From positions 52,545 through 116,544 of the forward strand of contig JAEYCM010000012.1 in the NCBI GenBank assembly GCA_023455425.1: a stretch of DNA of 64,000 nt, written 5' to 3'. The translations under genes and the position numbers were made by a program. Below the pieces are notes generated by a model, which was given only the letters and a program-made list of their open reading frames with translations, searched no databases and was not told the DNA's origin. Source of the stretch: Bacillota bacterium (lineage in GTDB: Bacteria; Bacillota; Clostridia; Christensenellales; CAG-138). This document shows positions 41,858 to 62,925 of the stretch, piece by piece (within the stretch, counting starts at the first letter, position 1; each line of letters begins with the position of its first letter).

Positions 41858-41890
41858 TAAATAAAGGAATTATGCGCGACAGAATGCTTT

Positions 41891-41923
41891 GACGTGAGAG
41901 AATACTTTCACGTCTTTTATTTT
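41891..41923 (+). terminator. Intrinsic terminator downstream of rlmD
   Basis: GACGTGAGAG-aata-CTTTCACGTC followed by TTTTATTTT. Confidence 0.8.
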
Positions 41924-41973
41924 CGATAAAATATAAGTAGGCTGCCCATTTAAATAAATGCCTGCGGAAGCAT

Positions 41974-43194
41974 ATGAAGAATGTAAGAATTATACCCGTA
42001 ATACCTAAAGAGAATAAAAAGCTTAGAGTTGCAGCTTATTGTCGGGTTAGCACATCCGGACCGGAACAACTGCGCAGCCTTGAGATTCAGATAAAAGCCT
42101 ATACGAACATTATAAAAAGCCATCCCAACTGGCTTTATGCCGGTGTGTTTTACGACATCGAAAGTGGACTGCGGCGAAGTGGCAGAAGTGGACTGGACAA
42201 AATGCTGGGGAATGTGGCAAAGGGCAAAATCGATTACATTATCACCAAGTCAATCAGCAGGGTGTCGAGAGATACGCTTGAGGTTTTGAAGATTATAAGA
42301 TTCTTAAGAGAGCGAGGGATCAACATGCATTTTGAAAATGAGAAGCTGGATTCAATCGAGGCAGAAAAAGAATTTGAGATTACGCTGAGAGCTATGCTGG
42401 CGCAGGACGAAAGTCGGAATATCAGCGAGAATATTCAATGGGGAATTCAGCGCAAGTTTGAAAAAGGCGAGATTTATACGAAGTATAAGAATTTTACGGG
42501 ATACACTTGCGATGACGGTAAGATTGTCATTGTACCAGAACAGGCAGAAGTAGTTAGAAAAATCTTTGACTTATATTTACAAGGCCTGTCGTTGGGGCAA
42601 ATCAAGGCTTACCTGGAAGCCCAGGGGATTAAAACTGTAACGGGCAAGGAGATTTGGGATACAAAAACAATCCAGAGGATGTTGACCAATGAGAAATACA
42701 AAGGCGATACCATGCTTCAAAAGACCTTTACTGAGGATTTTATGACCGGTAAGAAAAGTAAGAATATCGGGCAGCGAAATAAGTATTATGTGAAAAACAG
42801 TCACCCCGCTATTGTTTCCGACGAAGTATTTGATAGGGTGCAGGAGGAAATGGCGAAGCGTGCAAGGCTTGTCAGCAATGAGAATGGTACGGTAGAAACC
42901 CGCGGGAGCAAATATAACGGAAAATATATATTGGGGAATTTGCTCGTATGCGGCGATTGTGGCGCATCTTATCGGAGAAGGACTGAACGCGGTAAGGTGG
43001 TCTGGAGATGTGCTACAAGGATCGAAAAGGGTAAAGATGCTTGCGCTACTTCTCCTACGATAAATGAAGCACAATTGAATGAACAACTGGCAGAGGCAGT
43101 ATGTGGCGGTGTCTATGATGAGGGGATAATTAGGAGCAAGGTCGATAAGATACAGATTTTTGAAAAATTTATTATAATAGCTGCAAAGATGTAG
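41974..43194 (+). CDS. Large serine recombinase (resolvase/invertase catalytic domain + recombinase domain + zinc ribbon)
   Basis: VAAYCRVSTSGPEQ (catalytic Ser), ...ITKSISRVSRDTLEVL..., recombinase domain, Zn ribbon CGDCGASYRRR...WRCATRIEKGKDAC. At 406 aa it is short for the family. Confidence 0.9.
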   Translation: MKNVRIIPVIPKENKKLRVAAYCRVSTSGPEQLRSLEIQIKAYTNIIKSHPNWLYAGVFYDIESGLRRSGRSGLDKMLGNVAKGKIDYIITKSISRVSRDTLEVLKIIRFLRERGINMHFENEKLDSIEAEKEFEITLRAMLAQDESRNISENIQWGIQRKFEKGEIYTKYKNFTGYTCDDGKIVIVPEQAEVVRKIFDLYLQGLSLGQIKAYLEAQGIKTVTGKEIWDTKTIQRMLTNEKYKGDTMLQKTFTEDFMTGKKSKNIGQRNKYYVKNSHPAIVSDEVFDRVQEEMAKRARLVSNENGTVETRGSKYNGKYILGNLLVCGDCGASYRRRTERGKVVWRCATRIEKGKDACATSPTINEAQLNEQLAEAVCGGVYDEGIIRSKVDKIQIFEKFIIIAAKM

Positions 43195-43467
43195 TATTGA
43201 AGCCGGCAAACTCAAGCATATAGCAAAGCAGTCGGAGGCTTGGTCTCAGTCAAAGACGAGCTGATAGGATCCAATTCAAATCTAAATTGAGCCAGCGGGT
43301 TTTATATTCGATTAAGGCGGTGTCCGTGCCTGGAAACCTTACAAGGTGGATGTGGATCCAATCACACCGTAAAACATTTCGATTAGAAATAGCTCCATTA
43401 TTATTATATACTTATTACAGGGTGTTCTTTTAGAACTTCCAATAATAACTCTAAAGGGAAAAAGGAT

Positions 43468-44163
43468 TTGGAGAAGATAGTTAATGCGATTTTATTTCTA
43501 AAAGATATCTACAATAGTATCTTTGGAGTAATATTTATAAGTATTGGTTTGCTACTGCTTTTTTCCTTAATGGTATATTGTAGATTAAAAAGAATGAATA
43601 AAACATATAATAAAAGATGGGATACTTATGTTGCGGCAGTGAAAAAAGAGGCATTACGGATGATTGCCGAATTCGTAGTAATCTCTATGCTATTGATATT
43701 AATACAAGATAGTTTTAATATAGATATTTTAGATTTCATAAGAAATGAAACCTGGAAACTAATTATCGGTTTCTGGTTCATATTTCATATAAAAAATGGG
43801 CGAAGCATCTACAAGTATGTAAATCGCGAATTGCTTTTAGATGAAATTGAAAAAGGGCAAAATCCAAGCCTGCAATTTGAGCTTATGATAAAACAATATC
43901 AAAATAATTATGACTTGGAACTTGAAAAACTTGGAATTTTGAAATCCTTAGCACCCGTTTCTTTAGTACCCCTAATAGCTGGATTTATATTGGAAAATAA
44001 GAAGATAAGTTTAAATGCCTATACCATTATCTTTTTTTGTATTTTGTTCCTGTATATATATGAACTTTGGAAATGCTATGATACGTTGAGATTTTGGAAA
44101 TCAAGAAAAAGAAAAGTTGAAGAAAGAATAATGAATTTGAAAGAAAAGTGCGCAGCGCATTGA
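43468..44163 (+). CDS. Multi-pass membrane protein, function unknown (very AT-rich)
   Basis: 231-aa ORF with ~5 hydrophobic helices and a basic C-terminus. TTG start after AAAAGGA; I recognise no family. Confidence 0.6.
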   Translation: MEKIVNAILFLKDIYNSIFGVIFISIGLLLLFSLMVYCRLKRMNKTYNKRWDTYVAAVKKEALRMIAEFVVISMLLILIQDSFNIDILDFIRNETWKLIIGFWFIFHIKNGRSIYKYVNRELLLDEIEKGQNPSLQFELMIKQYQNNYDLELEKLGILKSLAPVSLVPLIAGFILENKKISLNAYTIIFFCILFLYIYELWKCYDTLRFWKSRKRKVEERIMNLKEKCAAH

Positions 44164-44302
44164 CAAGGAACTATTACACGCAACTCGGGTGAGGTTGTAT
44201 GGTGCTGCGCAAGCCGGGGAGAGCATGGAAAGAAATCTGACGCCACTTCCCAATGATCAGTAATGAGCAAACCATAGAGTTTTTCTTTGTAAGCCTTGAA
44301 TA

Positions 44303-44669
44303 TTACGGAACTGGATTTTGAAACTGATCCATAAAGAATGGATAAATTTCGTCTGCAGCAAAATACTTTTCATGCCAAGCAAGAATAGTTCTTGTCATTT
44401 TTACTATGAAAATGTTGGAATATCTACTATAATAGCTCTTGTAAAGCAATACGGAAGGGCTTAAGAGCTGTATGGAGATTTCAATGGCAAATAGAAGAAA
44501 CAAGAAAAAAGTCTATTGCAGCTTGACCAACATTGCCTGTAAGGAATATGTTGATTCTCGGGAATATGTGATTCGGAGTTTGCTCTGAAACTATAGGTTG
44601 AAGTTTAGTAAAATGAGTGGGCAAGCAACCCATTCTATAAGGTGCAAGTATAAAAGCGAAATCTTCCAT
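44303..44669 (-). pseudogene. Possible frameshifted gene remnant (two overlapping minus-strand ORF pieces)
   Basis: Track ORFs 44481..44669 and 44303..44503 abut in different frames. No RBS and no recognisable family, so this is very tentative. Confidence 0.25.
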
Positions 44670-44851
44670 CTTTATGCAGTTGAATGATATGGCAACCTCT
44701 TTGGCAGGTTAAGCCATGCGAATTTATATTTATCCCCAAAAACCAAACAGATATCCTGTTTGATAACACTCACATAGGCCCACAAACACGCCAACCCCGC
44801 TTTCGTTGTAGAATAGTCAAGCATGATTTTTTCAGAGGAGAAGGAATTCCT

Positions 44852-47800: not shown

Positions 47801-50707
47801 AACTTGGATGGGGCTATGCTCAAAAGCGAATGGACAAGCTCGCAGACCAAATGGTTTCTTCCTAAATTGCTGCAGCAAAGCAAGCTGAAGAAGGCTGTCA
47901 AGGTGTTTTGGAAAACGCCGGATCAAAGAATGCTCGCCGATTCGTTTTTCAAGGCCTTCTCCGACCTAGCCGAATATCAGTCAAATTATGCGGCGGGACA
48001 GGCGCTTTTCGGGCGATACGGTGCGGAGCTGGGAAGCTTATACAACGACGTCAAAACCGATTGGGAAAAAATACGGGCTTATGCCAATGATGCCAAGCAC
48101 AGTGACGCAGAGCTCAACGCGCTGACGGGGAATGATGATTTGCGTATTGCATTTGCGGGTGTAAAGGAGCTCTTTCCGATCATCACTGAATATATAGAGG
48201 CTTACGAGCAGATGTTTATGCCTAGGGATGACTTGCACGCACTTTTGGAAATTGTGCAGGATACGCAGCCTGACGGTGATTGGATTTCGATGCAGTTTGA
48301 CATGTGCAAGCAAATCAAAGCGCATTCGAACGTTCTGAAAGAATGGATGGTTTGGGTCGATTCTGTAAAAGAAGCTGATCTTCTTGGTATGATGCCATTG
48401 GTTGACGCTTACCGAAAGGGGCTGTCTCACGAAGCCGCCGTACCAGCTTATTATAAGGGACTCTATACTGCTCTGATCTATAAAGCCGTAGAGGAAAGTC
48501 CTGTGCTTAATAGTTTTTCCGGTGTGGTATTCCATGAAAAAATTCGCCAGTTTCAGCAGTTGGATGCAGAACTGACCGAACTGGCAAAAAGGGAAGTGTT
48601 TTACCGCCTTGCGTCCCAAGTTCCAAATTTCACACAGGAAGCATCACAGAAATCGGAAGTTGGTGTGCTGCAGCGCGCAATCCGAAGCGGCGGTCGAGGT
48701 GTTAGCATCCGCCGCCTGTTTGAGCAGATATCTAACCTGTTGCCTAGGCTTTGCCCCTGCATGCTAATGAGTCCTCTTTCTGCCGCACAATATCTCGACC
48801 CGAACCGAAAGCCATTTGACCTTGTCATCTTTGACGAAGCATCTCAAATGCCTACAGCCCGAGCCGTGGGTGCTTTGGCGCGGGGGGCCAATGCGATTAT
48901 TGTGGGTGACCCAAAGCAGATGCCGCCCACAAGCTTTTTTTCGGGCAACGCGCTAGATGAGGACAATTTGGAAACTGAGGATTTGGAGAGCATTTTGGAC
49001 GATACGCTGGCGTTGAACATGCCTCAGTCTCATTTGCTATGGCACTATCGAAGCCGTCATGAAAGCTTGATTGCTTTTAGTAATCATCACTTTTATGCGG
49101 ACAAGCTATACACCTTCCCTTCCATCAATGATCGGGAGTCGAAGGTGACGCTGGTGCCTATCGACGGTTTCTTTGACCGGGGAAAATCGCGGCAGAACCG
49201 CGCGGAGGCGGAGGCAATCGTAAGCGAACTGATCCGCCGCAGCCAGGATCCGGTTTGTATGGAGCAGAGCGTGGGTGTCGTCAGCTTCAACATCCAACAG
49301 CAAAATCTGATTGACGATCTGTTTACCGAGGCCTGCAAATCAAACTCTGAGTTGGAGCAATGGGCCTACGAGTCGACGGAGCCGATCTTCATTAAAAACC
49401 TGGAGAATGTTCAGGGAGATGAACGGGATGTCATCCTGTTTTCCATCGGCTATGGTCCGGATGCTACGGGCAAGACGTATATGAATTTTGGCCCCTTAAA
49501 CCGAGAGGGCGGCTGGCGGAGGCTCAATGTGGCCGTGTCCCGCGCACGGCAGGAAATGAAAGTCTTTTCTTCGATTCGGGCGGATCAGATCGATCTCGCG
49601 CGCACCGCCGCCGAGGGGGTTGTCGCACTGAAGGCATTTTTAGAATACGCTTCCGGTGCAGCCTTGACTAATAATGCCCAAAACCTTTTTAAAGCCGCAG
49701 ATGACAAAAATGGCGTGGCCATTATGCTTAAGCGTAGGCTGGAGCGAGAAGGATATCAGTCGCAGCTGCAGGTGGGGCATTCTAAATATAAAATTGACTT
49801 AGGTGTCATTGATCCGAAAAAACCAAGCCGATATTTGATGGGAATTCTGTTGGATGGAGAGGCGTATCAATCTGCCAAAACGACGAGAGACAGGGAGTTG
49901 TCCCAAATCAGCGTACTAAAAGGATTGGGATGGCGCATTCATCGGCTTTGGTCAGTGGACTGGTGGGACAACAGCGACAAAGAATTTGCTAAGATTATAG
50001 ACCTGCTGAAGGCACCTGTGTCCTGTGCGGATCCATTATTGCTCAAAACCGGTTTGCCGATGGATGGCGCTGCGCAACCCGTCCCAAACCAGAAGCTGGA
50101 GCATTCTCTTTACGAGGCAAGTATATTGTCGACATCATCCGCTCCCACGTCAGAGACCGCGTTGTATCAAGCAGCTACTTTGCCGGTACGGCCCATGACG
50201 CCGGACGAATACCTGCTCCCCCAAAAGGTCGGCCTGATCAAAAGCGCAATTCATACGATCCTTGAGCAGGAAGCGCCTATCAGCGAACCACTGTTGACCC
50301 GGCGTGTTGTACAGAGCTTTGGCATCTCTCGAGCAGGTTCGCGTATTCAGCAAAGAACAGCGGCGGTTCTTCGTAGCATGAATCTGCTCTGTACCCGTCA
50401 TGGTGACCAGACCTATTACTGGCTTAGTTCCCAGCATCCGGATACCTATTCCAGCTTTCGTGTTTCTGCTTCGGGTGTTCGGGAGGCTGGCGATATACCG
50501 GTACAGGAAATAGCTAACGCCGTCTGCGCTGCGCTTGAACGACAAATTGCAATGCCGAAGGATGATCTATTACGGGAAACAGCAAATCTACTGGGGTACA
50601 CTCGTTTGGGCAATAACGTTATCTCGTCGGTAACGGCAGGTATAGTGTATGCAGTGAAAACAAGGAAAATTGTGGAACAAAAAGACGATTACTATGTGTT
50701 GACATAA
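44852..50707 (+). CDS. 1,951-aa multidomain SF1 helicase-nuclease: transglutaminase-like N-domain, DUF4011-like region, Upf1/DNA2-like (AAA_11/AAA_12) helicase, DUF559/Vsr-like endonuclease fold, DUF3320-like C-terminus
   Basis: LGTCLDLTLFYATCLEAIGLHP...GHIFAGVW (Cys/His core). Walker A LHGPPGTGKSQT (46955-46978). VIFDEASQM, GDPKQMPPTSF, WHYRSRHESLI, NVQGDERDVILFSIGYG, RRLNVAVSRAR. Then GYQSQLQVGHSKYKIDLGVID...ILLDGEAYQSAKTTRDRE...GWRIHRLWSVDWW and PISEPLLTRRVVQSFGISRAGSRI. ATG 44852 after AGAGGAGAAGG. Confidence 0.9.
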   Translation: MTDTSKTTGLPSEVCLTPTSALGRVHLKIELTSVINYALQQNRIPVIREILICNNSTDDIENAVVKLRCEPEFVCSAQMNVASIPAGASFSLSGFQPQINASFLAELTERMIGRLDIALEGNQGEVLAACQYEITALAFDEWHGTAFYPELLCAFVTPNHPEAIKITARSAQLLGNWSGDPSLNAYQTQDPNRVLMQAAAVYGALQEANIIYSVPPASFERIGQRVRLCDAVIQQKLGTCLDLTLFYATCLEAIGLHPILLLQQGHIFAGVWLENRSFSETVENDPSLITKRIAEGVNEIAVVECTALVAGKNMSFDEAMAAAVSKLRDPDPLEYIIDVSRSRLSGIRPLPLRIQSETGWKIETQKRSEKELTRIPESLGEIIHVDETSTKKTWSKMLQWERKLLDLSLRNTLINLRWSQSVIPILCESLSDLEDALADGEEYGISPRPSEWVLPEEQRRSIERLTDLGDFRDLIKVEFQNKRLRSFLSEGELSRAIVNVYRASKSSLEENGANTLYLAIGFLRWYETPTSQKPRYAPLILLPIEIVRKSALKGYVIRIRDEEPQMNITLLQMIAQDFGIQIQGLDPLPLDAMGIDLRTVFTVMRKAVMNQPRWDVIGAAFLGIFSFSQFVMWNDIRNRSEDLQKNKIVRSLMDGRLSWHARELESDERVPEGDTLLPIPMDASQLHAIRAAAEGQSFVLHGPPGTGKSQTITAIIANALAKGKSVLFVAEKMAALSVVQQRLKNIGIGPFCLELHSNKSNKRDVLNQLNEAAQVAKQNVPSAWLKKAEQTAQLRGELDVYAQALHKEQKCGLSLFAMIGSYTNYTECSETIDFSPKFAESLDEDRMQKQQMMLDRLIAAARLIGHPCHHPLRNVGRSVYTQQIKSELPQKLDAYMSALEKLSDVGMLLTQKLKQPTPLIFSDWERIYQIACQLQVWIPLPRYWGRDSDWTRTCMDIQAMASHFDAARRLYGELSIHWEEGLFNLDGAMLKSEWTSSQTKWFLPKLLQQSKLKKAVKVFWKTPDQRMLADSFFKAFSDLAEYQSNYAAGQALFGRYGAELGSLYNDVKTDWEKIRAYANDAKHSDAELNALTGNDDLRIAFAGVKELFPIITEYIEAYEQMFMPRDDLHALLEIVQDTQPDGDWISMQFDMCKQIKAHSNVLKEWMVWVDSVKEADLLGMMPLVDAYRKGLSHEAAVPAYYKGLYTALIYKAVEESPVLNSFSGVVFHEKIRQFQQLDAELTELAKREVFYRLASQVPNFTQEASQKSEVGVLQRAIRSGGRGVSIRRLFEQISNLLPRLCPCMLMSPLSAAQYLDPNRKPFDLVIFDEASQMPTARAVGALARGANAIIVGDPKQMPPTSFFSGNALDEDNLETEDLESILDDTLALNMPQSHLLWHYRSRHESLIAFSNHHFYADKLYTFPSINDRESKVTLVPIDGFFDRGKSRQNRAEAEAIVSELIRRSQDPVCMEQSVGVVSFNIQQQNLIDDLFTEACKSNSELEQWAYESTEPIFIKNLENVQGDERDVILFSIGYGPDATGKTYMNFGPLNREGGWRRLNVAVSRARQEMKVFSSIRADQIDLARTAAEGVVALKAFLEYASGAALTNNAQNLFKAADDKNGVAIMLKRRLEREGYQSQLQVGHSKYKIDLGVIDPKKPSRYLMGILLDGEAYQSAKTTRDRELSQISVLKGLGWRIHRLWSVDWWDNSDKEFAKIIDLLKAPVSCADPLLLKTGLPMDGAAQPVPNQKLEHSLYEASILSTSSAPTSETALYQAATLPVRPMTPDEYLLPQKVGLIKSAIHTILEQEAPISEPLLTRRVVQSFGISRAGSRIQQRTAAVLRSMNLLCTRHGDQTYYWLSSQHPDTYSSFRVSASGVREAGDIPVQEIANAVCAALERQIAMPKDDLLRETANLLGYTRLGNNVISSVTAGIVYAVKTRKIVEQKDDYYVLT

Positions 50708-50746
50708 AATTATGTGTGCGAATCTATAAGCTAGAGGGAGCCTGCT

Positions 50747-52924
50747 ATGGGATTCTACTTAAGAAAATCAATAAGTTTTGGTGGCGTTCGGTTCGACTTT
50801 TCGAAATCTGGTATCGGCGCATCGGTTGGAGTAAAGGGTTTCCGTTTCGGAATGGGTCTACGAGGCAACTACGTGCATATGGGGCGAGGTGGCATCTATT
50901 ATCGCGCCGTACTCGGAGCAAAGAAAGGTAACGTACAACGTACGCAACCTGCTCGTCCTGAAGGCGAAAGGGATAAAGGCGATGGTTTGCTGTTCCAGGA
51001 AATTGAAAGCGGTGATATTTCCTTTATCATTGATTCATCTTCTCAAGAAATTGTAAATGAGATCAACGCTAAGTGTAAAAAGACACCATGTTGGCCTCTT
51101 GCAATCTTGTGTGCATTTATTCCGTCGGTGGGTATTCCTATCGCGATTATAGCTGCCATTTTAATTAATGTGCTCATCGACAAAAGACGAAAGACAACTA
51201 TTATCTTTTACGATATCGAGGAACAGGCAGAGCAGGAGATACAACAACTTTACAACGCTTTTGAGCAGCTGATGAATTGCAGTTTCGTATGGCACATTGC
51301 CTCTCAAGCAGCTGTGCAGGATAGAAAATATCATGCAGGCGCAAGCACAGTAGTCAGACGAACAAAAATCAAAATAGAATACAAGACTCCTCCTTACCTT
51401 AAAACGAATGTGAAGGTGCCTGCTATTCCTGTTGGAAAACAGATACTCTATTGCTTCCCCGATAGGATACTAATCTATGAGGGTAAACAAGTTGGTGGTA
51501 TTTCTTACGCAAACTTGTCTATTAGGCAGAGGGGGCAAAGATTCATCGAGGATGGGATTGTTCCGGAGGATGGAACAATTGTGGATCATACTTGGCGCTA
51601 TGTTAACAAGTCTGGCGGTCCAGATAAGCGATTCAAGGATAATCGAAAACTTCCCATTTTGATATATTCAGACATCTCTTTTCAGAGCGATACAGGGTTG
51701 AACGAGTTAATCGAATTATCTAAGCAGGATGTGGGCGTTGAACTAATACAGCAACTAGACAAATACAAAGCAAGCCCGTGGTGGAATGAAGAATTGGAGT
51801 CTTCTAAGGGCATCCAAATGCCAGCATCACAACCTCAACCGATATTGCTGCCCAAGCAAGTAAGTGCGGAAGCTGCGATGCCATCTATTGAAGTAATACC
51901 CCAAATCATTTCTTCAACGCCGAAAGATGTCATCCCTGCTGAGATACGGATAAAAGACGCCATCGCTAGTTCGCACGGATTATACCCCCATGAGGTGCTG
52001 GTACTTGATTATTCCCACTCATACTATACGGAAGGGAACCATTATCAAAGTTTCTGGTGGTATGGATACGGTGTGAGTAATGTTGACGCGCTTCTACGTT
52101 CCCTCCTCGACAGAGGATTTTTGCAGGTCGGCGATTTGCAGAGCGCTATTGAGAATGAAAATGCTGTGGTGCTAAAGGAAGAACTCAAAAAGTATGGCAG
52201 CAAAGTGAGTGGTAAAAAAGCGGAATTGGTACATCGGTTGATAAATGAGGTTTCGCATGACGAGCTGAGTGTTCGGTTTACAAAAAGAATGTACCAATTA
52301 ACAGAGCTTGGAAAGCGGGCGCTTGAAGAAGAAGCTTATGTACCTTACATCCATCGTCATCCGTTCGAAGGGTTAGATATCTGGTCGCTCAACAGAATTA
52401 TGTATACTCCGCCGTACATGTCATTTCGAGATAAAATTTTGGATTATCTTTATCAACGTGGCACAGAACATATCTCCGCTGGGAATTTTGGGCTTTATAG
52501 AAACTGTCGTTACAGTATGTCAGTACTTTTGCAAGAAGAGAAACGGTATATGGATGCGCTCGGTATGTTGGCGGAAGTTGTTTTTTACGATTTGAGTGGG
52601 CTTAGCAATAATTACGATCCGAAATATCTTGACATTTATGCTGAAAGTTATTTTCCATACCAGGAATCGAGCGCAACAACGGCGCCCGGCATAATAGATG
52701 CGATTTTGCAATGCCAAAAGGAACTTGGCATTGTTGAAGATGAGTTAAAATCTGAGTTGCTTAATCATATGAGGAGACTAAGTGCGCCGTTGCATCTTTT
52801 CACCCCTGAAGAATGCGTAGACATTGTGCTTGGGGAGGTTTGTGAGAACACTGAAGCACTGACAAAAATATACTCAAAAGCAAAACGGCGATTCAAACAA
52901 AAGTATCCGAGCCTCAAGTGTTAA
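50747..52924 (+). CDS. DUF4236-N-terminal membrane protein with a C-terminal SAP-motif region
   Basis: MGFYLRKSISFGGVRFDFSKSGIGASVGVKGFRFGMGLRGNYVHMGRGGIYYR (DUF4236-like). TM segment WPLAILCAFIPSVGIPIAIIAAILINVLI. SAP-like LKEELKKYGSKVSGKKAELVHRLINEV. Starts 39 nt after the helicase stop. Confidence 0.85.
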   Translation: MGFYLRKSISFGGVRFDFSKSGIGASVGVKGFRFGMGLRGNYVHMGRGGIYYRAVLGAKKGNVQRTQPARPEGERDKGDGLLFQEIESGDISFIIDSSSQEIVNEINAKCKKTPCWPLAILCAFIPSVGIPIAIIAAILINVLIDKRRKTTIIFYDIEEQAEQEIQQLYNAFEQLMNCSFVWHIASQAAVQDRKYHAGASTVVRRTKIKIEYKTPPYLKTNVKVPAIPVGKQILYCFPDRILIYEGKQVGGISYANLSIRQRGQRFIEDGIVPEDGTIVDHTWRYVNKSGGPDKRFKDNRKLPILIYSDISFQSDTGLNELIELSKQDVGVELIQQLDKYKASPWWNEELESSKGIQMPASQPQPILLPKQVSAEAAMPSIEVIPQIISSTPKDVIPAEIRIKDAIASSHGLYPHEVLVLDYSHSYYTEGNHYQSFWWYGYGVSNVDALLRSLLDRGFLQVGDLQSAIENENAVVLKEELKKYGSKVSGKKAELVHRLINEVSHDELSVRFTKRMYQLTELGKRALEEEAYVPYIHRHPFEGLDIWSLNRIMYTPPYMSFRDKILDYLYQRGTEHISAGNFGLYRNCRYSMSVLLQEEKRYMDALGMLAEVVFYDLSGLSNNYDPKYLDIYAESYFPYQESSATTAPGIIDAILQCQKELGIVEDELKSELLNHMRRLSAPLHLFTPEECVDIVLGEVCENTEALTKIYSKAKRRFKQKYPSLKC

Positions 52925-53021
52925 GCGGGAGAATCAATTACCACAATCTACATTTAATTCCGCCAATTCTTCAGAGTTCAAGATTGACATCAGATAATAT
53001 TATTTAATTTACACTAAACCA

Positions 53022-53041
53022 TGGTATAATATTCGTATAAT
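53022..53041 (+). promoter_or_regulatory. Candidate promoter of the peptide/rSAM/NTPase cassette
   Basis: Extended -10 TGgTATAAT (53022-53030) and a second TATAAT (53036-53041), 37-56 nt upstream of the peptide ATG. Confidence 0.5.
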
Positions 53042-53077
53042 GGAAAAGTAATTCTTGTCGAAAAGGAGGTGAGCAAT

Positions 53078-53194
53078 ATGGGTTACACAAAACCTGCGGT
53101 ATTAGCACAAAGTACTGTACGGATGGCACAATGCACTCCCAATAGTAAACCGAGTGGAAGACCTTGTGATCCACCAAGGCCAGGTGGACGGTAA
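53078..53194 (+). CDS. 38-aa candidate RiPP-type precursor peptide MGYTKPAVLAQSTVRMAQCTPNSKPSGRPCDPPRPGGR (not in the ORF track)
   Basis: Strong RBS AGGAGG (53064-53069) 8 nt before the ATG. Two Cys and a Pro/Arg/Gly-rich C-terminal half. Lies immediately upstream of an RRE-rSAM-SPASM gene and is followed by a long hairpin. Confidence 0.6.
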   Translation: MGYTKPAVLAQSTVRMAQCTPNSKPSGRPCDPPRPGGR

Positions 53195-53204
53195 TACAAT
53201 TCAA

Positions 53205-53241
53205 TCAGACGACGAAGTTTTAATAAAAACTCGTCGTCTGA
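53205..53241 (+). other. Long intercistronic hairpin between the peptide ORF and the rSAM gene
   Basis: Perfect 11-bp arms TCAGACGACGA / TCGTCGTCTGA, extended by GTTTT/AAAAC. No T-run follows, so it looks like an RNA-stability/attenuation element rather than a full terminator. Confidence 0.7.
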
Positions 53242-53260
53242 TTAACTAAGGAGAAATTGT

Positions 53261-54775
53261 ATGTTTTTCAAACAAAAATCTAATATTTTATTCAGAAACT
53301 ATGAGTCCTTTGGATATATAACGGACAATAGGAATTTCGGATATAAACAAGCAGATGATAACAAAAATGACATCGGGGATAAAATTCTATCGGAAAGTGG
53401 AGCTGTGTTTTTTTCAGTTTTAAGCAGAAAGCCTCAAACCCTTGACGTTCTTGCTCAAAAAATAAATAAGAAATTTACAGATGTTGATATCGAAACAATA
53501 AAGAATGATGCCAGAGACTTTTACTTTATGCTTGAACAAAATGGATTTATTGTATCTGGCGAAACAATGCAGGAGTGCGAAAAAAAAGATACAAAGTTTT
53601 CGTACAAAATACTTGAACCCGAGATAATAAAAAATGACTATTCTCCGACTATTATGCGGCCTGAAAGATCCACACAGGAATTTTTAGAAGAATATTTTAA
53701 TGACAAGCCTCAACTTACAAATTTACATATAGAAATTACAAGCAAGTGCAATGAAAGATGCGTACATTGCTATATTCCGCATGAGAACAAAGCAAGTGAT
53801 ATCGAACCTGATTTATTTTATGATGTTTTAAAGCAATGTAAAGCTATGAGATTATTACATTTGACAATAAGCGGTGGTGAACCACTATTGCACAAAAGTT
53901 TTTGTGATTTTTTAAGAAAATGTAAGGAATACGATTTTTCAGTAAATATTCTTAGCAACTTAACTTTACTTAATGATGAAATAATCAAAGCAATGAAAGT
54001 AAACCCTCTTTTAGGGGTTCAAGTCTCACTATATTCAATGGATTCCAATATTCACGATGGAATAACCCAAATGAAAGGAAGCTTTGAAAAGACAAAGAAC
54101 GCAATTTTGCAGCTTATTGAAAACGATATACCTTTACAAATAAGCTGTCCAATAATGAAACAAAATAAAAACTGCTATGGGGACGTTAAAAATTGGGCAA
54201 GAACACATAATGTTCAAGTTAGAGATGACTATGTCATCATAGCACAATATAATCATACAACACAAAATCTGAGTAACCGTCTATCCATTGATGAAATCAA
54301 AGAAGTAATTAAAGAGATTGTTGTGAATGATACAAGCTATTGGGAGAGAGCGGAAAGAGATGCAGAGAGTAAAAAAGATCTTACACCAAACGATTATATT
54401 TGTAGTGTTTGTCATTCATCCATTTGCATAGCAGAGAATGGAAATGTATATCCATGTGCTGGCTGGCAGGATTATAATATCGGTAATATGAAAGAAGCTT
54501 CTCTCAAAGATATTTGGAATAATTCTGAAAAAATACAATATCTCAGAGGCTTAAGAAGAAAAGATTTTCCTAAATGTATTCAATGCCATGATAAAGAGTT
54601 TTGTACCATGTGTATGGTTAGAAATGCAAATGAAGACCCCTTGGGAGATCCATTAGCAGTTAATGAGCATTTTTGTAATATTGCAAAACTGAATAGAAAT
54701 ATGATGCTTGAATGGAAAGAAAAACTTAAAAGTTCTTTGAATAAAGTTATTCCATATGCAAACAACCAACGATAA
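53261..54775 (+). CDS. Radical SAM / SPASM-domain peptide-modifying enzyme with an N-terminal PqqD-like RRE
   Basis: RRE-like ILSESGAVFFSVLSRKPQTLDVLAQKINKKF...ARDFYFMLEQNGFIV. Cluster motif SKCNERCVHCY (CxxxCxxC). GGEPLL. SPASM Cys pattern CSVCHSSICIAENGNVYPCAG...CIQCHDKEFCTMC...FC. AAGGAGA RBS. Confidence 0.9.
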   Translation: MFFKQKSNILFRNYESFGYITDNRNFGYKQADDNKNDIGDKILSESGAVFFSVLSRKPQTLDVLAQKINKKFTDVDIETIKNDARDFYFMLEQNGFIVSGETMQECEKKDTKFSYKILEPEIIKNDYSPTIMRPERSTQEFLEEYFNDKPQLTNLHIEITSKCNERCVHCYIPHENKASDIEPDLFYDVLKQCKAMRLLHLTISGGEPLLHKSFCDFLRKCKEYDFSVNILSNLTLLNDEIIKAMKVNPLLGVQVSLYSMDSNIHDGITQMKGSFEKTKNAILQLIENDIPLQISCPIMKQNKNCYGDVKNWARTHNVQVRDDYVIIAQYNHTTQNLSNRLSIDEIKEVIKEIVVNDTSYWERAERDAESKKDLTPNDYICSVCHSSICIAENGNVYPCAGWQDYNIGNMKEASLKDIWNNSEKIQYLRGLRRKDFPKCIQCHDKEFCTMCMVRNANEDPLGDPLAVNEHFCNIAKLNRNMMLEWKEKLKSSLNKVIPYANNQR

Positions 54776-54811
54776 TAAATGTTGAATCAGATCAACATCA
54801 GGAGATAAAGA

Positions 54812-57800
54812 ATGCTTGAAATAAACTGGAACATTTTCAAAGCAAAATTTAATAATAAAGAACAAAAAACGTTCGAGAACTTAAGTTACCTTCTATTTTG
54901 TGACGAGTTTAATAAGGATACAGGAATCTTTCGCTATAAAAATCAGGCAGGAATAGAAACAGAGCCAATCGAGCATGATGGAAAAATCATTGGATTCCAA
55001 GCTAAATTTTATGAGACTAAAATCAGCGATAACATACCGGATATTAAGAATTCTATCAAGAAGGCGAAAGAAAAAAATCCAAATATAAATAAAGTATTAT
55101 TTTATATTAATCAAGAGTTTTCTGAGAGTACAACCATAGGGCAAAAAGAACCCCGATACAAAATTATTATTGAGGAGTTTGCGGCAAGTAAAGGCATCGA
55201 AATCGAGTGGAGAGTACCCAGCTATTTTGAAAGACAACTGGCGCTTGAGAAAAACATTTCCTTTGGAAAGCATTTTTTTGCTATAGATAAAGGTACCTTT
55301 GACCTCGTGCAGGACTTGATTCAGCATACGGAATCTATTCTTGCCCCTATCCGTTCAGACATAGAATATCAGGGCAATACAATAAAGCTGGACAGATCAG
55401 CCATCTTGGCCGGTTTGCAGTCTGCTTTAACCCTAACCGAACCTCCAGTTGTCATTGTGAGCGGAAAAGGCGGCGTCGGAAAGACCGCGGTAATTAAAGA
55501 TTTTTATACTCAACTCAAAGAATCGATACCGATTATTATGTTTAAGGCTGCAGAGTTTAATGTCTCTAATATTAATTGCCTTTTTAATGTTTATGGAGAT
55601 TTCACATTAGCTGATTTTATATCTGAGTATCAGCGTATAGAAGAAAAATATATTGTCATTGATTCCGCTGAAAAATTATCCGACATAGAAGATCAGAATC
55701 CATTTCAAGAGTTTTTATCTAGACTAATCAACAACAAATGGAAGGTAATATTTACAACAAGGTATAGCTATCTTGATGACCTAAAATTTCTGTTAATGGA
55801 ATTGTACCGGCTATCGTTTACTTCACAAAATATTGAAGAAATCAGTGAAAAAGAACTTGCGGAGCTATCCAGCAAGTATTCTTTCAACCTTCCGCAAAAT
55901 GCAAGACTACTTGAACTGTTGCAGAACCCTTTTTATCTCGCGGAATATTTGAGTGAATATAAAAATATAAAAGCCTCAGCAAGCCTTTCGGATTTTAGAA
56001 ATCTTCTATGGAATAAACATATCGTAAAGTCGGCTTACCGAAAAAATAATATTCATATCAAGAGAGAAGCTTGCTTTTTACAGATTGCTCGGAAGAGAGC
56101 CGATGAAGGACAGTTTTTTGTAAACATAGAGAACTATGATAATGAAACGCTACAATCTCTTGAAGCGGATGAAATAATCAGATATGATGCAAATGCAGGC
56201 GGATACTTTATTACTCATGATATTTATGAAGAATGGGCGCTAGGGAAAATAATCGAACGGAACTACGCTTCATTATTAACTTATGAGAGCTTCTTTGCAA
56301 TATTGGGAAGCAGTTTGCCTATTCGTAGGGCTTTCAGAAACTGGTTGTCCGAAAAGCTATTTATCAATTATGGAGATATTAAGTTATTAATCGAACACTC
56401 CTTTGCCAATGACGCGGTAGCGTCATTCTGGAAAGATGAACTGATTGTTTCTGTTTTGCTGTCGGAATACTCGCAAGTATTTTTCCAATTATTCAAAACA
56501 AAACTTATGGAGGACGAACAGGCACTTTTGGTACGGGTTGTTTTTTTGCTTAGAATTGCCTGCAAAGAGATTGCCGATAGTTTTTTGCCCGTGATAGTTA
56601 CTCAACCAAAAGGCAGCGGATGGTCATATGTAATCGATTTCATCCATAGTCACAAAGAAACTCTTGGTAACGAACATATATCAACGATTCTTCCCATGCT
56701 GGCTGATTGGAATGATAAAAATACTCATGGAAATACAACAAAGAAGGCAAGTCAGATTGCTCTGTTCTACTATGAAAACATAGTAGGCCAAGGAGGATTT
56801 GGGTATAGATCCGAAGGGAAAATAAAGGAACCACTCATCAGGGTTATACTACAGGGCTCAGCAGAAATTAGAGAAGAACTGAAACATATTTTCGATGGAA
56901 TACTTACTAGAAACGAACCTAATCATAAAGATAGAGACTATGAACTGGTCGAAGTAATACTGACCTCAATCACCGATAACTATGAAGTCATAAAAATACT
57001 TCCTGACTATGTTATTAAGCTGGCGGAACTATTTTGGGTATATAAGCCGAAAAAAGATAATAAAGTTTTGAACATTAGGTCATCGGAACTTGAAGAAAAT
57101 TTTGGCCTCTCCCATAGACCTGATGATTGGTACTTTCCTCCAAGCGCTTTGCAAACGCCATTTTACCAGCTTTTAAGGCATGATACCAATATGACGGTAA
57201 ATTTTATTTTAAAATTTATGAATATGGCAGTCGAAAATTATGTAAAGTCTGAATTCAAAGACGAAGTGGAAGAAGTTAAAGTTTTTCTCGATAGCGACTG
57301 TCAGATTAATCAATACGTCAGTAATAGGTTATGGAATACCTACAGAGGCACTCAGGTTTCCACACATCTTCTGGAATCGATGCATATGGCCTTGGAAAAA
57401 TGGCTGCTGGATTACGCCAAATATGGAAAGACTGAGCATCTGGAAGAATGGTGTTATTATCTTATAAAAAATTCTTGCTCAGCCTCCATCACTGCTGTAG
57501 TCGCCAGCGCTGTCATGGCCTATCCATCTAAGCTGTTCACTATTGCAAAGATTCTTTTTCGAACCAAGGAATTTTTCTATTATGATACCAAGAGAATAGT
57601 ACTAGACGAATCCGCTAAGTTAACCTATTCTATTGGACACGGCTTAAATTTTAAACGTGATATATATTCGGACGAAAGAATCAAGACCTGCGAAGACAAA
57701 CACAGGAAGAAAAGATTTGAACAATTGGCCGTAGAATATCAGTTCTTTAGGTCGGAAAACGTTAGTGCCGAAGAAGCGGAAGTAAGGCAAAAGGCCTTAT

Positions 57801-59548
57801 GGGAAATATTTGATGTCTATTATAAAGAACTAGAGGGAAAGCCTGAAGATACTGAAGACAACCAAATATGGAGATTGTGCCTGGCAAGAATGGATCGAAG
57901 AAAAATGAATCCGGAATTAGAACAAACAGAGGAAGGAATTTCAATTAACTTTAACCCACAGCTTGAGCCGGAATTAAAAAAATATAGCGATGAGGCTTTA
58001 CAGGAATATAACGACGCAAATAAGTATATACCTCTATACTTATGGTCCAGATACAGATTCGCTAACGAAAAGGGGAAATATAGCCAGTATCAGCAATACG
58101 AAAATAATCCGCGTTTAGTAGTCATAGAACTAAGAGAGATTATGCAAGCTTTAAAAATTGGATCTCCAGAAGATTTTCGATTATTTAATCGGTCTATCCC
58201 GGCCTATGCCTGCGCAGTCTTGGTCAGGGATTTTAGCAATGAGTTAAGTCGGGAAGAAATAGAATTTTGTAAAGATATACTTATAGAATATTCCGCATCG
58301 CCGTTTCATGCGAGTCGCTATGTATATCAAGCTTTAGACGGAATAGAGCCCGCCATTAGTTCTTTATCTTACCTACTTAAATTTTTTTCTACAGAAAGGG
58401 AAGAGTTCGAAGGTATTAAAGGCCTGATGTTATTCTTGCTTTTTGTGCATGGAAAGATTCCTGAATTTACCACTCGAGCCATCTTGCAAAATTTATGGGA
58501 TATCAGTTTTGAAGATGCGCATTCCCTCTTTTTAGGATACATGTTCCTCAAGCCAAAATACGACAAGTTAGCGAAGAAATTGCAAGAAGATAATTATAAG
58601 AAACATATTTATGAAATTTCCGATAATCAAATTCTTGAGGTGTTTGGCGAGCAATACGAAAGTGAAATCAAAAAGATTATTTCGAATGATATTAAGTATG
58701 TCGATATTCCAAATGCACAAAACAAGAACTTGAGAATGTTGACCCGGGCATTTGAGTCGTTGCCACCAGGCACAAAGCATCCAGAACATATTAATTTTGT
58801 TTCAGAGATATTTCCGATCTTCGCCCAGAGAGTTTTTAAACGCGACAGGCATAACGATGACGAAGAAAAATTTGACTATACAATAAAAAACGAATTTCTA
58901 GATAAGTTTGCTGCCTTTGTCTTAACCGCAGATAAAGATATGATAGAAACATATCTTCAGCCGTTTATTGAAAACTTTAAAGTATCGGATGATACGGTGC
59001 GGTTCTTTCAATCTTTTATTTTTGCTGAAGATAGATTGAACAGATACGAAGAATTTTGGCATACATGGCATCTATTTTATGGAAAAATTAAGGATATCTG
59101 CACAGCGAAAAGTTATTATCATGATACCAAAGAAACTATTTATAATTATCTACTGGCATGGCCATATTGGAAGAACACTGCACGAGAATGGCACTCTTTA
59201 AAAGAACGAGAGAAAATTTTTTATAAAAAGGCCTCCGAGGATATGGGCCATTTCCCGCCCGTATTATATTCTATATCTAAAGTCCTTAACGATATCGGGA
59301 GCAACTTCATAGAAGACGGGATATTATGGCTGAGTGAAATAATAAACAAGAATAATAATTTGCTGACTGAGGAGCTTGAAGTAAATACCATTTATTATCT
59401 TGAATGCATCGCACGTAAATACATTCTTGCGAACCGTCAAAAAACCAAAACAATGCCGCAGATGAAAAAGGCACTCATTAGTATTTTGAACTTTTTGGTG
59501 GAGAGAGGCTCGGCGACTGGGTATTTATTACGTGAAAATATTTTATAA
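54812..59548 (+). CDS. 1,578-aa STAND-like P-loop NTPase with an N-terminal PD-(D/E)xK-like (Mrr/Cap4-like) nuclease domain and a ~1,100-aa helical-repeat C-terminus
   Basis: N-terminus FENLSYLLFCDEF...GIETEPIEHDGKIIGFQAKFY (acidic residues plus a QxK triad). Walker A VIVSGKGGVGKTAV (55463-55486). Walker B-like KYIVIDSAEKL. The rest is long and alpha-helical in appearance. AGGAGA RBS, 36 nt after the rSAM stop. Confidence 0.85.
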   Translation: MLEINWNIFKAKFNNKEQKTFENLSYLLFCDEFNKDTGIFRYKNQAGIETEPIEHDGKIIGFQAKFYETKISDNIPDIKNSIKKAKEKNPNINKVLFYINQEFSESTTIGQKEPRYKIIIEEFAASKGIEIEWRVPSYFERQLALEKNISFGKHFFAIDKGTFDLVQDLIQHTESILAPIRSDIEYQGNTIKLDRSAILAGLQSALTLTEPPVVIVSGKGGVGKTAVIKDFYTQLKESIPIIMFKAAEFNVSNINCLFNVYGDFTLADFISEYQRIEEKYIVIDSAEKLSDIEDQNPFQEFLSRLINNKWKVIFTTRYSYLDDLKFLLMELYRLSFTSQNIEEISEKELAELSSKYSFNLPQNARLLELLQNPFYLAEYLSEYKNIKASASLSDFRNLLWNKHIVKSAYRKNNIHIKREACFLQIARKRADEGQFFVNIENYDNETLQSLEADEIIRYDANAGGYFITHDIYEEWALGKIIERNYASLLTYESFFAILGSSLPIRRAFRNWLSEKLFINYGDIKLLIEHSFANDAVASFWKDELIVSVLLSEYSQVFFQLFKTKLMEDEQALLVRVVFLLRIACKEIADSFLPVIVTQPKGSGWSYVIDFIHSHKETLGNEHISTILPMLADWNDKNTHGNTTKKASQIALFYYENIVGQGGFGYRSEGKIKEPLIRVILQGSAEIREELKHIFDGILTRNEPNHKDRDYELVEVILTSITDNYEVIKILPDYVIKLAELFWVYKPKKDNKVLNIRSSELEENFGLSHRPDDWYFPPSALQTPFYQLLRHDTNMTVNFILKFMNMAVENYVKSEFKDEVEEVKVFLDSDCQINQYVSNRLWNTYRGTQVSTHLLESMHMALEKWLLDYAKYGKTEHLEEWCYYLIKNSCSASITAVVASAVMAYPSKLFTIAKILFRTKEFFYYDTKRIVLDESAKLTYSIGHGLNFKRDIYSDERIKTCEDKHRKKRFEQLAVEYQFFRSENVSAEEAEVRQKALWEIFDVYYKELEGKPEDTEDNQIWRLCLARMDRRKMNPELEQTEEGISINFNPQLEPELKKYSDEALQEYNDANKYIPLYLWSRYRFANEKGKYSQYQQYENNPRLVVIELREIMQALKIGSPEDFRLFNRSIPAYACAVLVRDFSNELSREEIEFCKDILIEYSASPFHASRYVYQALDGIEPAISSLSYLLKFFSTEREEFEGIKGLMLFLLFVHGKIPEFTTRAILQNLWDISFEDAHSLFLGYMFLKPKYDKLAKKLQEDNYKKHIYEISDNQILEVFGEQYESEIKKIISNDIKYVDIPNAQNKNLRMLTRAFESLPPGTKHPEHINFVSEIFPIFAQRVFKRDRHNDDEEKFDYTIKNEFLDKFAAFVLTADKDMIETYLQPFIENFKVSDDTVRFFQSFIFAEDRLNRYEEFWHTWHLFYGKIKDICTAKSYYHDTKETIYNYLLAWPYWKNTAREWHSLKEREKIFYKKASEDMGHFPPVLYSISKVLNDIGSNFIEDGILWLSEIINKNNNLLTEELEVNTIYYLECIARKYILANRQKTKTMPQMKKALISILNFLVERGSATGYLLRENIL

Positions 59549-59720
59549 TAACTTACAAATATCTGCCGCTAAGGGGATACCAGAGGGGTACGACATCCTT
59601 TTTGTATCCTCAACGCACGTTGAGACGATAATAATGATGACGAATTGTGGTCGAGACAAAAAATAATGGGGTTCAACCACAAGATGTTGTGGTTTTGGAC
59701 CGAAAATGAGCAAAAATCAA

Positions 59721-59755: not shown

Positions 59756-59883
59756 CTATTTTTATAGATGACAAAGGTCGTTGGAGAGAGGGGGACCTCC
59801 ATAGTCATAATTTTATACAGTATTGGGTTAGCAATTACTGATTTCTCTGTTGTTGTTTTAGGTCATTTCGATGTATTAATCAA

Positions 59884-60064
59884 GGGGGATATTGCTCAGC
59901 TGGTAGAGTTTGCAGCACCATCTGCATCCTAGGTAGGCACCGAGATGGAACCTTAATCGAACTGAAAGAATATGGGGCACTGGCACGGCTGGTAGAGCAT
60001 GCGATACCTTCTGCATTTCCAGACAAGACGCAAAATGTAACTTTTAACTGAACTAGAAGAATAT
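59884..60064 (+). repeat. Two tandem ~90-nt units whose 5' parts mimic a tRNA acceptor/D-arm (pseudo-tRNA-like)
   Basis: Unit A 59884-59973 (GGGGGATATTGCTCAGCTGGTAGAGTTTGCAG...GAACTGAAAGAATAT). Unit B 59974-60064 (GGGGCACTGGCACGGCTGGTAGAGCATGCGA...GAACTAGAAGAATAT). A T-loop-like GGTTCAAATCC follows at 60115-60125. Confidence 0.6.
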
Positions 60065-60742
60065 AGGGCGCGCCCGCTTATTATGCCGGGTTTCCATATT
60101 CAGTTGTTTAAGGTGGTTCAAATCCCGTAAGTCAGTTTCGTTTATTAGAAAAACACAATGAGTTAACTTGAATTGATGAAGAATGCGATGGAGCAATCTA
60201 GTACTGACGTGGAAAGAATTTCTTTATGATAAGCGGATTGATGATGCTAACAAATAGCCCGGCTTGTTTGAGCTCGCGTTACGATAATTTGCTTGCGGCT
60301 TTTCTTAAAGCAAAAGCGGGTTGATAAAGTAAACTATGCCCATCAAATAGAATAATACATGATCTTTGCTAGGCTTATACAACAGCTTTTTTATAGTTTA
60401 ATGCATCAAAGTAGCCCTTTCTCGGATTTTGCCCATTTTCATATTCTCAAAAGTCTTTTCACAGGTGGCTCATACCGACGTGTTTGGTTTGTAAAAATTC
60501 AATAAAGCAAATTATTATGGTTCGAGTGGAATGCAAAAGGCTGCCAATAACTGAACTGCCGGGTTACTGGAGTGTCGAACGCTATATTCGGCGATGCTCT
60601 TGGCTATCTGTGGATGCTGCATCAGATGCATAAAGAAGTAAGTTAGGAGAACGCACACGGCTTTAGGAGAAAAAAGTGACAATTTGTAATTGCGCATTAT
60701 GGATGTGATACGAAACAAATAGTGCCATCTTTTTGCTTTAAC

Positions 60743-60770
60743 TTGACAAATAAGAATTCCTGTTCATAAT
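60743..60770 (+). promoter_or_regulatory. Promoter of the TetR-family gene
   Basis: TTGACA (60743-60748), 16-nt spacer, CATAAT (60765-60770). A GAACTGGAGTTC palindrome lies next to the RBS. Confidence 0.5.
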
Positions 60771-60806
60771 ATTAAATATATATTCAATGAACTGGAGTTC
60801 AATATT

Positions 60807-61388
60807 ATGGGCGTTCGTGAAGAACAAAGAGAAAAGCGGCGGGAAGAAATTCTTGCGGCCGGACTTGATCTGTTTATCCGCAAGGGATATGCCGCAACAA
60901 AAATCAGCGATATTGCAGAGCGTGTCGGTATGAGTGTGGGGCTTTTGTTTCATTATTTTGAATCGAAAGAAAAGCTGTATGAAGAGCTGATAAAAGTCGG
61001 TATTTCAGCTCCAATGAGCGTTATGGATTCCCCCGGTACAGAGCCGCTGCAGCTTTTTGAGCGCGCCGCAGAACGGATTTTTTATTATATAAAAGCCAAA
61101 CCGTTTGCCGCAAAAATGTTTGTGCTGATGAGTCAGGCTTTTTATAACGAAGCGGCGCCGCAAAGTATCAAAGAGTTGTTATCAAACTTTGATATTTACG
61201 CGCTGACCACCCGGTCAATTCAACAAGGTCAGGCAAACGGCACAATTCGCGACGGTGATCCATACGCACTGGCAATTGCTTATTGGTGCGCCATCCAGGG
61301 CATCGCAGAGTGGATGGCACTAAATCCCGATGCTCCCTGTCCGGAGAGCAATTGGATTACAGATATTATCAGGAGGAAATCCGAATGA
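60807..61388 (+). CDS. TetR/AcrR-family transcriptional regulator
   Basis: N-terminal HTH EILAAGLDLFIRKGYAATKISDIAERVGMSVGLLFHYFESKEKLY. Confidence 0.9.
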   Translation: MGVREEQREKRREEILAAGLDLFIRKGYAATKISDIAERVGMSVGLLFHYFESKEKLYEELIKVGISAPMSVMDSPGTEPLQLFERAAERIFYYIKAKPFAAKMFVLMSQAFYNEAAPQSIKELLSNFDIYALTTRSIQQGQANGTIRDGDPYALAIAYWCAIQGIAEWMALNPDAPCPESNWITDIIRRKSE

Positions 61389-61464
61389 AAAAAGTACTTA
61401 TTGTGGGTGCGGGGAATATTCAGCTGCTTAAATTTGCGAAGTGAGATAGTAGCTTCGGTTAAAA

Positions 61465-62037
61465 ATGGAGGATGGATATGAGGGGTTGTTCGTTAAAAAA
61501 GCAACATTGGGGAAAGCTTTACTGTTTACTACTATTTTTACGGCATTTTTTGTTCTGATAAATTTTACGGAAGTTGGCGTAGCGGGCCTGCTGAAAATCA
61601 CAAATGGCGCTAGCATTCTTGATTTTAGGTTTGGATATTCAGCAGCCGAAGCCCACGATATGTTAACGACTTTAGGAGAACAAGGGCGGTCTTTTTATCT
61701 TCAAAAGATTATTCCCATTGATTTTCCGTTTCCGCTTGCATCCATGCTATGTTATGCCGGCTGGATCGCACTGGTAAAGCATACTGTGCCACAGAGCAAA
61801 GCCAAAAATTTACTAATTATCCCATTTTTGGAAATGCTCTTTAATTGGATGGAAAATTTTGGGATCATTTTTATGTTAACCGGATATCCCGATATACCCG
61901 TACAGGCGGTTACCATGGCCAGTATATCGGGTGTTTTAAAAGCCTTGTTCACGCTGGGCAGCCTATTTGCGATCCTTGTTTTGTTGACGGGCTATCTGCT
62001 AAAAACAAGGCAAAGAGCGCAAGAAGAACAAATCTGA
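61465..62037 (+). CDS. Integral membrane protein, function unknown
   Basis: 190-aa ORF with ~5 TM helices downstream of the TetR gene; start uncertain. Confidence 0.65.
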   Translation: MEDGYEGLFVKKATLGKALLFTTIFTAFFVLINFTEVGVAGLLKITNGASILDFRFGYSAAEAHDMLTTLGEQGRSFYLQKIIPIDFPFPLASMLCYAGWIALVKHTVPQSKAKNLLIIPFLEMLFNWMENFGIIFMLTGYPDIPVQAVTMASISGVLKALFTLGSLFAILVLLTGYLLKTRQRAQEEQI

Positions 62038-62135
62038 CATCGAACAGGATACCTTAGATGCATCCAAAACCCATATGACTATTCAAATCATAGTCAAATA
62101 GAACCGTTGATTAATTATATAAAGAGGATAAAGCA

Positions 62136-62606
62136 ATGGGGCATCCGGGCTTTTCATACGTGGGGCTGATTTTCTTGCTGATGTTGATAATTCCTAATCT
62201 ACTATGGATAAGACATCGGCCGAAGGATTATGATTTTCAAAATGAAAACAAGATCCTACGGGTCTTTGAGCGTGCCGGTCAGGTTCTTGTTACCTGTACA
62301 GCGCTCATTTTTTCGGACTTTAATCTTAGTCCCTGGTCAGTATGGACGCTGTGGCTTATTGCCGCAGTGGTACTAATGCTCATGTATGAGGGCTGGTGGG
62401 TTAGATATTTCAAAAGCCCAAAGACACTGGCGGACTTTTACAGCAGTTTTTGCGGTATTCCTGTAGCCGGTGCGACACTGCCTGTTGTTGCGTTTTTGCT
62501 GCTTGGCATATATGGGAGAGTAGTCTGGCTTCTGGTTTCTGTAGTGATTTTGGGGATCGGGCATATCGGCATTCACCTACGGCACCGCGAGGAAATTAAC
62601 GAATAA
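62136..62606 (+). CDS. Integral membrane protein, function unknown
   Basis: 156 aa with 4-5 TM helices; AAAGAGGA RBS. Confidence 0.7.
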   Translation: MGHPGFSYVGLIFLLMLIIPNLLWIRHRPKDYDFQNENKILRVFERAGQVLVTCTALIFSDFNLSPWSVWTLWLIAAVVLMLMYEGWWVRYFKSPKTLADFYSSFCGIPVAGATLPVVAFLLLGIYGRVVWLLVSVVILGIGHIGIHLRHREEINE

Positions 62607-62925
62607 ATCCCAATTTGTAATACAACTTAGGCTTCGGATAATCTATATAATCAGAAACAATTTTGAATTTGGAGATAAGGTGAGCACATGAAAAAAGGTA
62701 TTTGACAATATTTCTTTTAGCTGTGAAAGTTATTGTGGTTCTGTGGCCTGGGGTTAACTGAGAGGGTATGCGACCGCGGCGACATCAGCGGCAACCTGCA
62801 AAGACGGTTTCGGGACAACGAAATCGCTTAGAAGCCCTATACAAATAAACCCCTTCGTATAAATCTATCGCTCTTTTTATTGCAATCTTCTTTAGTGCAA
62901 ATATTAATAAAGGGTTGGAGAAACT

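Follow-up and report, generated by a model that had tools for sequence, protein, structure and literature searches.

The gene at positions 54812-59548 on the forward strand of a 64,000-nucleotide (nt) stretch of contig JAEYCM010000012.1, from a Bacillota metagenome-assembled genome (MAG), encodes a full-length member of the Avs4 (AVAST type 4) family and not a new Avs type, based on profile and structure-database matches. We refer to the whole stretch as the window. Avs4 is already known: it is named by curated models in NCBIfam and PADLOC and has a solved structure. The NCBIfam model NF041815 ('AVAST type 4 anti-phage nuclease Avs4') is an equivalog model with a curated cut-off of 1500 bits, and the window protein scores 2059.3 bits over profile positions 1-1579, thus above the cut-off over the whole length. 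With the PADLOC Avs4 model (PDLC02169), residues 1-1578 align to profile positions 1-1570 of 1570 (2000.8 bits), and the PADLOC search of the window protein returned no match to Avs models other than Avs4. A search of the Protein Data Bank (PDB) gave a sole match, 8DGF chain A ('ATP-binding protein Avs4'), which aligns over residues 1-1578 versus 1-1587 (E = 0, 1266 bits). The assignment follows from the agreement of these three independent libraries over the full length of the protein.

The open reading frame (ORF) has an ATG start and 1578 codons, and its frame is open throughout. Its motifs are FENLSYLLF (residues 21-29), GIETEP (47-52), GFQAKFY (61-67), GKGGVGKT (218-225) and YIVIDSAEKL (280-289). 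To assess conservation, the protein was aligned with homologues from 9-11 other genomes, which range from 85% down to 36% identity. A profile built from amino acids (aa) 1-190 matches only residues 1-206 of 8DGF (E 3.8e-67), and the N-terminal sequence is therefore the Avs4 head. Within it, E32, G47-I48-E49, Q63 and K65 are invariant among the aligned homologues. An acidic residue followed by Q-x-K is, judging from the motif, the arrangement of an Mrr-type PD-(D/E)xK site. The double substitution Q63A/K65A is reportedly the nuclease-dead mutant of the E. coli protein, EcAvs4. The structure 8DGF is labelled 'EcAvs4-Mrr-portal' and its effector is called Mrr (bioRxiv 10.64898/2026.08.25.746987).

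In the NTPase module, G218, G221 and G223-K224-T225-A226 of Walker A, D284-S285-A286-E287 of the Walker B region and R317 are invariant. The motifs of the head and the NTPase are more than chance resemblances, since they are retained in homologues with as little as 36% overall identity. An AlphaFold2 model of the C-terminal tail (1,058 residues, 10-sequence alignment) has a mean predicted local distance difference test (pLDDT) score of 78.5, and consists of 70% helix and 4% strand with two beta-hairpins. In a Foldseek search, this model matches chains A and B of 8DGF with E 2.5e-56, a template modelling (TM) score of 0.82 and 39% identity, and all remaining matches are generic alpha-solenoids with TM scores of 0.24 or less. 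The sequence alignment to 8DGF extends through the last residue of the sensor. By fold and by sequence, the tail is thus a homologue of the EcAvs4 sensor, which binds the portal.

An earlier interpretation of this DNA, made from the letters alone (the sequence-only reading), had described a tripartite ORF at these coordinates with a restriction-endonuclease-type head, a P-loop, a Walker B motif and an alpha-helical tail consistent with a ligand or sensor domain, and had found the architecture typical of immune ATPases that recognize patterns, as Avs proteins do. The ORF is real and uninterrupted and the motifs lie at the residues given there; the head is borne out as Mrr-like, and the functional reading was right. 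The same interpretation had not recognized the N-terminal sequence from described Avs types; the match to 8DGF identifies it as that of Avs4. The PADLOC run that it had suggested as a check gives Avs4.

The window protein is collinear end to end with EcAvs4, whose structure was solved with the portal of phage PhiV-1, at about 39-43% identity. The two share the Mrr-like head, the E...QxK motif (GFQAKFY in the window, GWQSKFY in EcAvs4), Walker A and B and the sensor fold. They differ in an insertion of about 16 residues near aa 107 of the EcAvs4 head, which the window protein lacks, and in host, a Bacillota MAG versus an enterobacterium. SeAvs3 (PDB 8DGC) and other Avs families have the same effector-NTPase-sensor layout and logic of activation by tetramerization, but differ from Avs4 in effector family, sensor and trigger; SeAvs3 has a Cap4 nuclease head and a terminase sensor. 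The closest relatives of the window protein are the Avs4 of the Bacillota MAGs UBA5509 (locus L008) and Ch29 (L010) and of Desulforamulus aeronauticus DSM 10349 (L009), with 85%, 74% and 72% full-length protein identity, respectively.

Avs4 is activated by direct binding of the phage portal; a tetramer then activates the N-terminal nuclease, with the Mrr domains arranged as two dimers with active sites, and defence proceeds by nucleic-acid degradation (PMC11897194; bioRxiv 10.64898/2026.08.25.746987; bioRxiv 10.64898/2026.01.04.697583). Every sequence element needed for this mechanism is present and conserved in the window protein, and on these grounds we assign the mechanism to it. We consider it very probable that the gene encodes a stand-alone antiviral STAND NTPase that works as EcAvs4 does. 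Family membership, intactness, motif conservation, sensor fold and the absence of a conserved neighbour are directly supported; the portal trigger, tetramerization and DNase activity are drawn from homology with EcAvs4. By that homology, the C-terminal helical sensor would bind the portal protein produced during phage infection, and portal binding together with ATP at the Walker A/B site would lead to assembly of a tetramer. The tetramer would pair the N-terminal Mrr-like domains into active dimers, which would cut DNA and thereby abort the infection. No partner gene would be needed, and Avs4 would simply be placed behind an unrelated peptide/radical-SAM cassette, with which it is probably co-transcribed.

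This cassette consists of a small peptide ORF and a gene for a radical-SAM enzyme that stands immediately upstream of Avs4 on the same strand. The sequence-only reading had not recognized the association with a peptide maturase from described Avs types. The radical-SAM stop and the Avs4 start are 36 nt apart (54776-54811) with no terminator-like site between them, and because of this we infer that co-transcription is plausible. The arrangement also favours an explanation in which Avs4 and the cassette are coupled as a three-part system, with the modified peptide regulating, restraining or being sensed by Avs4. We consider such coupling very improbable, given how the two parts are distributed.

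Three sets of loci were compared. The first consists of 13 Avs4 loci with flanks of up to 6 kilobases (kb), obtained by scanning one genome for each species; the second, of 3 additional loci with an Avs4 or Avs4-like gene and 1.5 kb flanks, obtained from 401 host-phylum genomes; and the third, of 80 metagenomic loci with a radical-SAM orthologue at 59-81% identity (42 with at least 3 kb downstream). A radical-SAM relative was found in none of the 13 loci and a radical-SAM gene in none of the 3; in all, none of these 16 loci has one within the flanks covered. Conversely, 0 of the 80 radical-SAM loci contain an Avs4 relative. When the ORFs next to Avs4 in 12 loci were compared all against all, the only neighbour in common was a serine recombinase, shared by the three closest relatives. 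These genomic comparisons are in keeping with Avs4 working as a single gene that has no obligatory partner. Thus, the proposed association with a peptide maturase is absent from all other Avs4 and radical-SAM loci that we examined.

The most frequent gene after the radical-SAM gene encodes a conserved TPR plus DUF2971 protein of 450-770 aa on the same strand. It is next in line in 26 of the 50 loci whose downstream DNA spans 1.5 kb or more. In 25 of these (L033, L034, L036-L039, L042, L052, L056-L059, L061, L062, L065, L068-L070, L072, L074, L076, L082-L084 and L095), the distance from the radical-SAM match to its start is about 30-125 nt, and in L024 it is about 330 nt. In its common form, the cassette may thus comprise three genes. 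In the window the third gene is absent, and Avs4 stands where it usually is. If the coupling explanation applied, Avs4 would replace this protein, which likewise has a sensor-plus-effector layout. DUF2971 has been reported to be DarT/AbiGi-like and ADP-ribosyltransferase-like, and Aristaios, a lactococcal antiphage protein, has no other domain (PMC11381338; PMC12522546). Taken further, the cassette would be a portable front module for interchangeable immune sensor-effectors, and the locus a natural swap that puts Avs4 under the control of the modified peptide; this too strikes us as most unlikely. A relationship between Avs4 and the TPR-DUF2971 protein was ruled out (hhalign probability 0.1), and Avs4 is described as activated through direct portal binding (PMC11897194; bioRxiv 10.64898/2026.01.04.697583). 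At other radical-SAM loci this position is taken by PIN-like, HsdM, M64 peptidase or QatA-like genes. On the simplest view, the cassette resides in defence islands and meets varied neighbours.

The DNA between the two genes also argues against coupling. Homology to the 80 radical-SAM loci starts at about 53021 and does not extend past 54755, whereas homology to the Avs4 loci begins at 54801-54807 (BLASTN; about 54785 by eye) and ends at about 59624. Based on these breakpoints, two separately conserved, independent modules meet within a stretch of about 25-45 nt. This places the junction some 25-55 nt 5' of the Avs4 ATG, just before the ribosome-binding site. On the Avs4 side, DNA of the three closest relatives can be aligned with the window from about 5-11 nt 5' of the start to about 65-80 nt 3' of the stop, and a purine-rich box like the AGGAG of the window also precedes the start in all three. 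On the cassette side, the radical-SAM ORF of the window is about 12 codons longer than its orthologues (54737-54775). The usual TAA/TAG position reads TTG, and the extended frame enters sequence that is 3' flank in other loci.

Several observations weigh against the assignment of a functional, EcAvs4-like mechanism. No nuclease domain was matched by Pfam in the window protein, and the Pfam matches of nSTAND3, AAA_16, NACHT and NB-ARC at aa 194-352 are all sub-threshold. The AlphaFold2 model of the head, from 11 sequences, is poor (pLDDT 54.6); in a Foldseek search with this poor model 8DGF ranks first, and the restriction enzyme EcoT38I is third with an E value of 0.02, a weak result in favour of a nuclease fold. 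With the sensor sharing only about 39% identity with that of EcAvs4, the exact trigger of the window protein could differ. Finally, the promoter region of about 200 nt between recombinase and Avs4 in relatives is absent from the window, and with the 36-nt gap this means that Avs4 expression relies on upstream transcription or on a putative internal promoter.

This last point also bears on the weakest alternative, which we find hardly credible, that the gene is a silent or decaying passenger copy that lost its own promoter when an 11.6-kb block was inserted: the upstream intergenic region of relatives is indeed replaced, and copies that look broken exist elsewhere (L014 6001-9906, with a stop at codon 1170 after which homology resumes later; L020 4518-5667, with a frame change near codon 58 and a match that extends to the end of the available DNA), but in the window all 1578 codons are open, every family-invariant residue is retained, the ribosome-binding site is intact and no terminator separates Avs4 from the upstream gene.

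The 11.6-kb block (43163-54807) lies between Avs4 and a large serine recombinase. In UBA5509 and Ch29 the recombinase is directly 5' of Avs4, with copies 80-82% identical to that of the window located about 200-660 nt upstream. The block contains a membrane protein, a ProA helicase-nuclease (NF058533, 2039 bits), a DUF4236-SAP protein, the peptide and the radical-SAM gene. A minimal element of serine recombinase plus Avs4 occupies 4420-10808 in L008 and 3855-10837 in L010, and its counterparts in the window are 41703-43194 and 54801-59624. In both the window and Ch29, a TRAM/uracil-5 methyltransferase gene stands immediately before the recombinase, and the last 8 residues of the methyltransferase are identical. 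This same preceding gene suggests that the two share an integration site.

The island is also distinct in composition. A block of low guanine-cytosine (GC) content (34-39%, versus about 57% in the first 42 kb) begins right after the methyltransferase stop at 41857. None of 40 related genomes, 8 of them of the same genus, has an Avs4 above the cut-off, and Avs4 was found in 4 of the 401 genomes sampled from the phylum. From the low GC relative to the flanks and the rarity in related and phylum genomes, Avs4 appears to have been acquired horizontally, on a low-GC defence island associated with a serine recombinase. A tRNA attachment site was considered and rejected, as the island contains no tRNA and no Rfam family. 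No direct repeats bounding the island were found within the window. The GC content stays low (37-46%) over a further 3 kb past Avs4 (59800-62900). In this stretch, 1.2 kb lacking any long ORF are followed by a gene for a TetR regulator (60807-61388) and by two ORFs that match no family.

In itself the finding matters little, as it is the correct recognition of a characterized defence gene. It places Avs4 in a Bacillota lineage that has been little sampled and shows the growth of a minimal serine-recombinase plus Avs4 element into a stacked defence island with ProA, the peptide/radical-SAM cassette and Avs4. The Avs4 gene is no longer evidence for a 'peptide-linked immune system', and claims regarding the radical-SAM cassette must rest on the conserved partners of that cassette itself. 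The features of the locus are listed in Table 1.

Table 1 Features of the Avs4 locus, in window coordinates
Feature	Position	Strand	Basis
Large serine recombinase	41974..43194	+	Pfam Resolvase, Recombinase, Zn_ribbon_recom
PqqD/RRE-radical SAM-SPASM enzyme gene	53261-54775	+	Family matches; preceded by small peptide ORF
Junction of radical-SAM cassette and Avs4 module (putative)	54756..54800	+	Homology breakpoints
AGGAG ribosome-binding site, 7 nt 5' of Avs4 ATG	54800..54804	+	Sequence
Avs4 gene, 1578 aa, intact	54812..59548	+	ORF; NF041815; PADLOC Avs4; 8DGF_A
N-terminal Mrr-like PD-(D/E)xK nuclease effector (predicted), aa 1-190	54812..55381	+	Aligns to EcAvs4 residues 1-206
Predicted nuclease residue E49	54956-54958
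Predicted nuclease residues Q63-A-K65	54998-55006
STAND NTPase module, aa ~191-520	55382..56371	+	Sub-threshold Pfam and invariant motifs
Walker A, aa 218-225	55463-55486	+
Walker B	55649-55678	+
C-terminal alpha-helical sensor (predicted), aa 521-1578	56372..59545	+	AlphaFold2 and Foldseek
Conserved 3' flank of Avs4 module (~65 nt), short hairpin followed by T-run	59560..59625	+	Homology to L008, L009, L010 as far as about 59613-59627

The conserved element of about 65 nt that follows Avs4 is probably a terminator, although its role may also be that of a cassette boundary. Its folding energy is no better than that of shuffled sequence. In Desulforamulus aeronauticus (L009) there is a second copy of the element 2 kb upstream, and the two copies (3857-3926 and 10732-10791) bracket Avs4 and two small ORFs. 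The 220 nt downstream of Avs4 in the window match the upstream copy of L009 better than the downstream copy.

Two other Bacillota genomes encode Avs4-like proteins of about 1725 aa (L104 640-5823, forward strand; L105 1474-6642, reverse strand). These match the Avs4 model only from position ~160 onward, with 558-580 bits and about 23% identity. Their N-terminal region is different, with a length of about 310 aa and no Pfam match, and is possibly an undescribed effector head.

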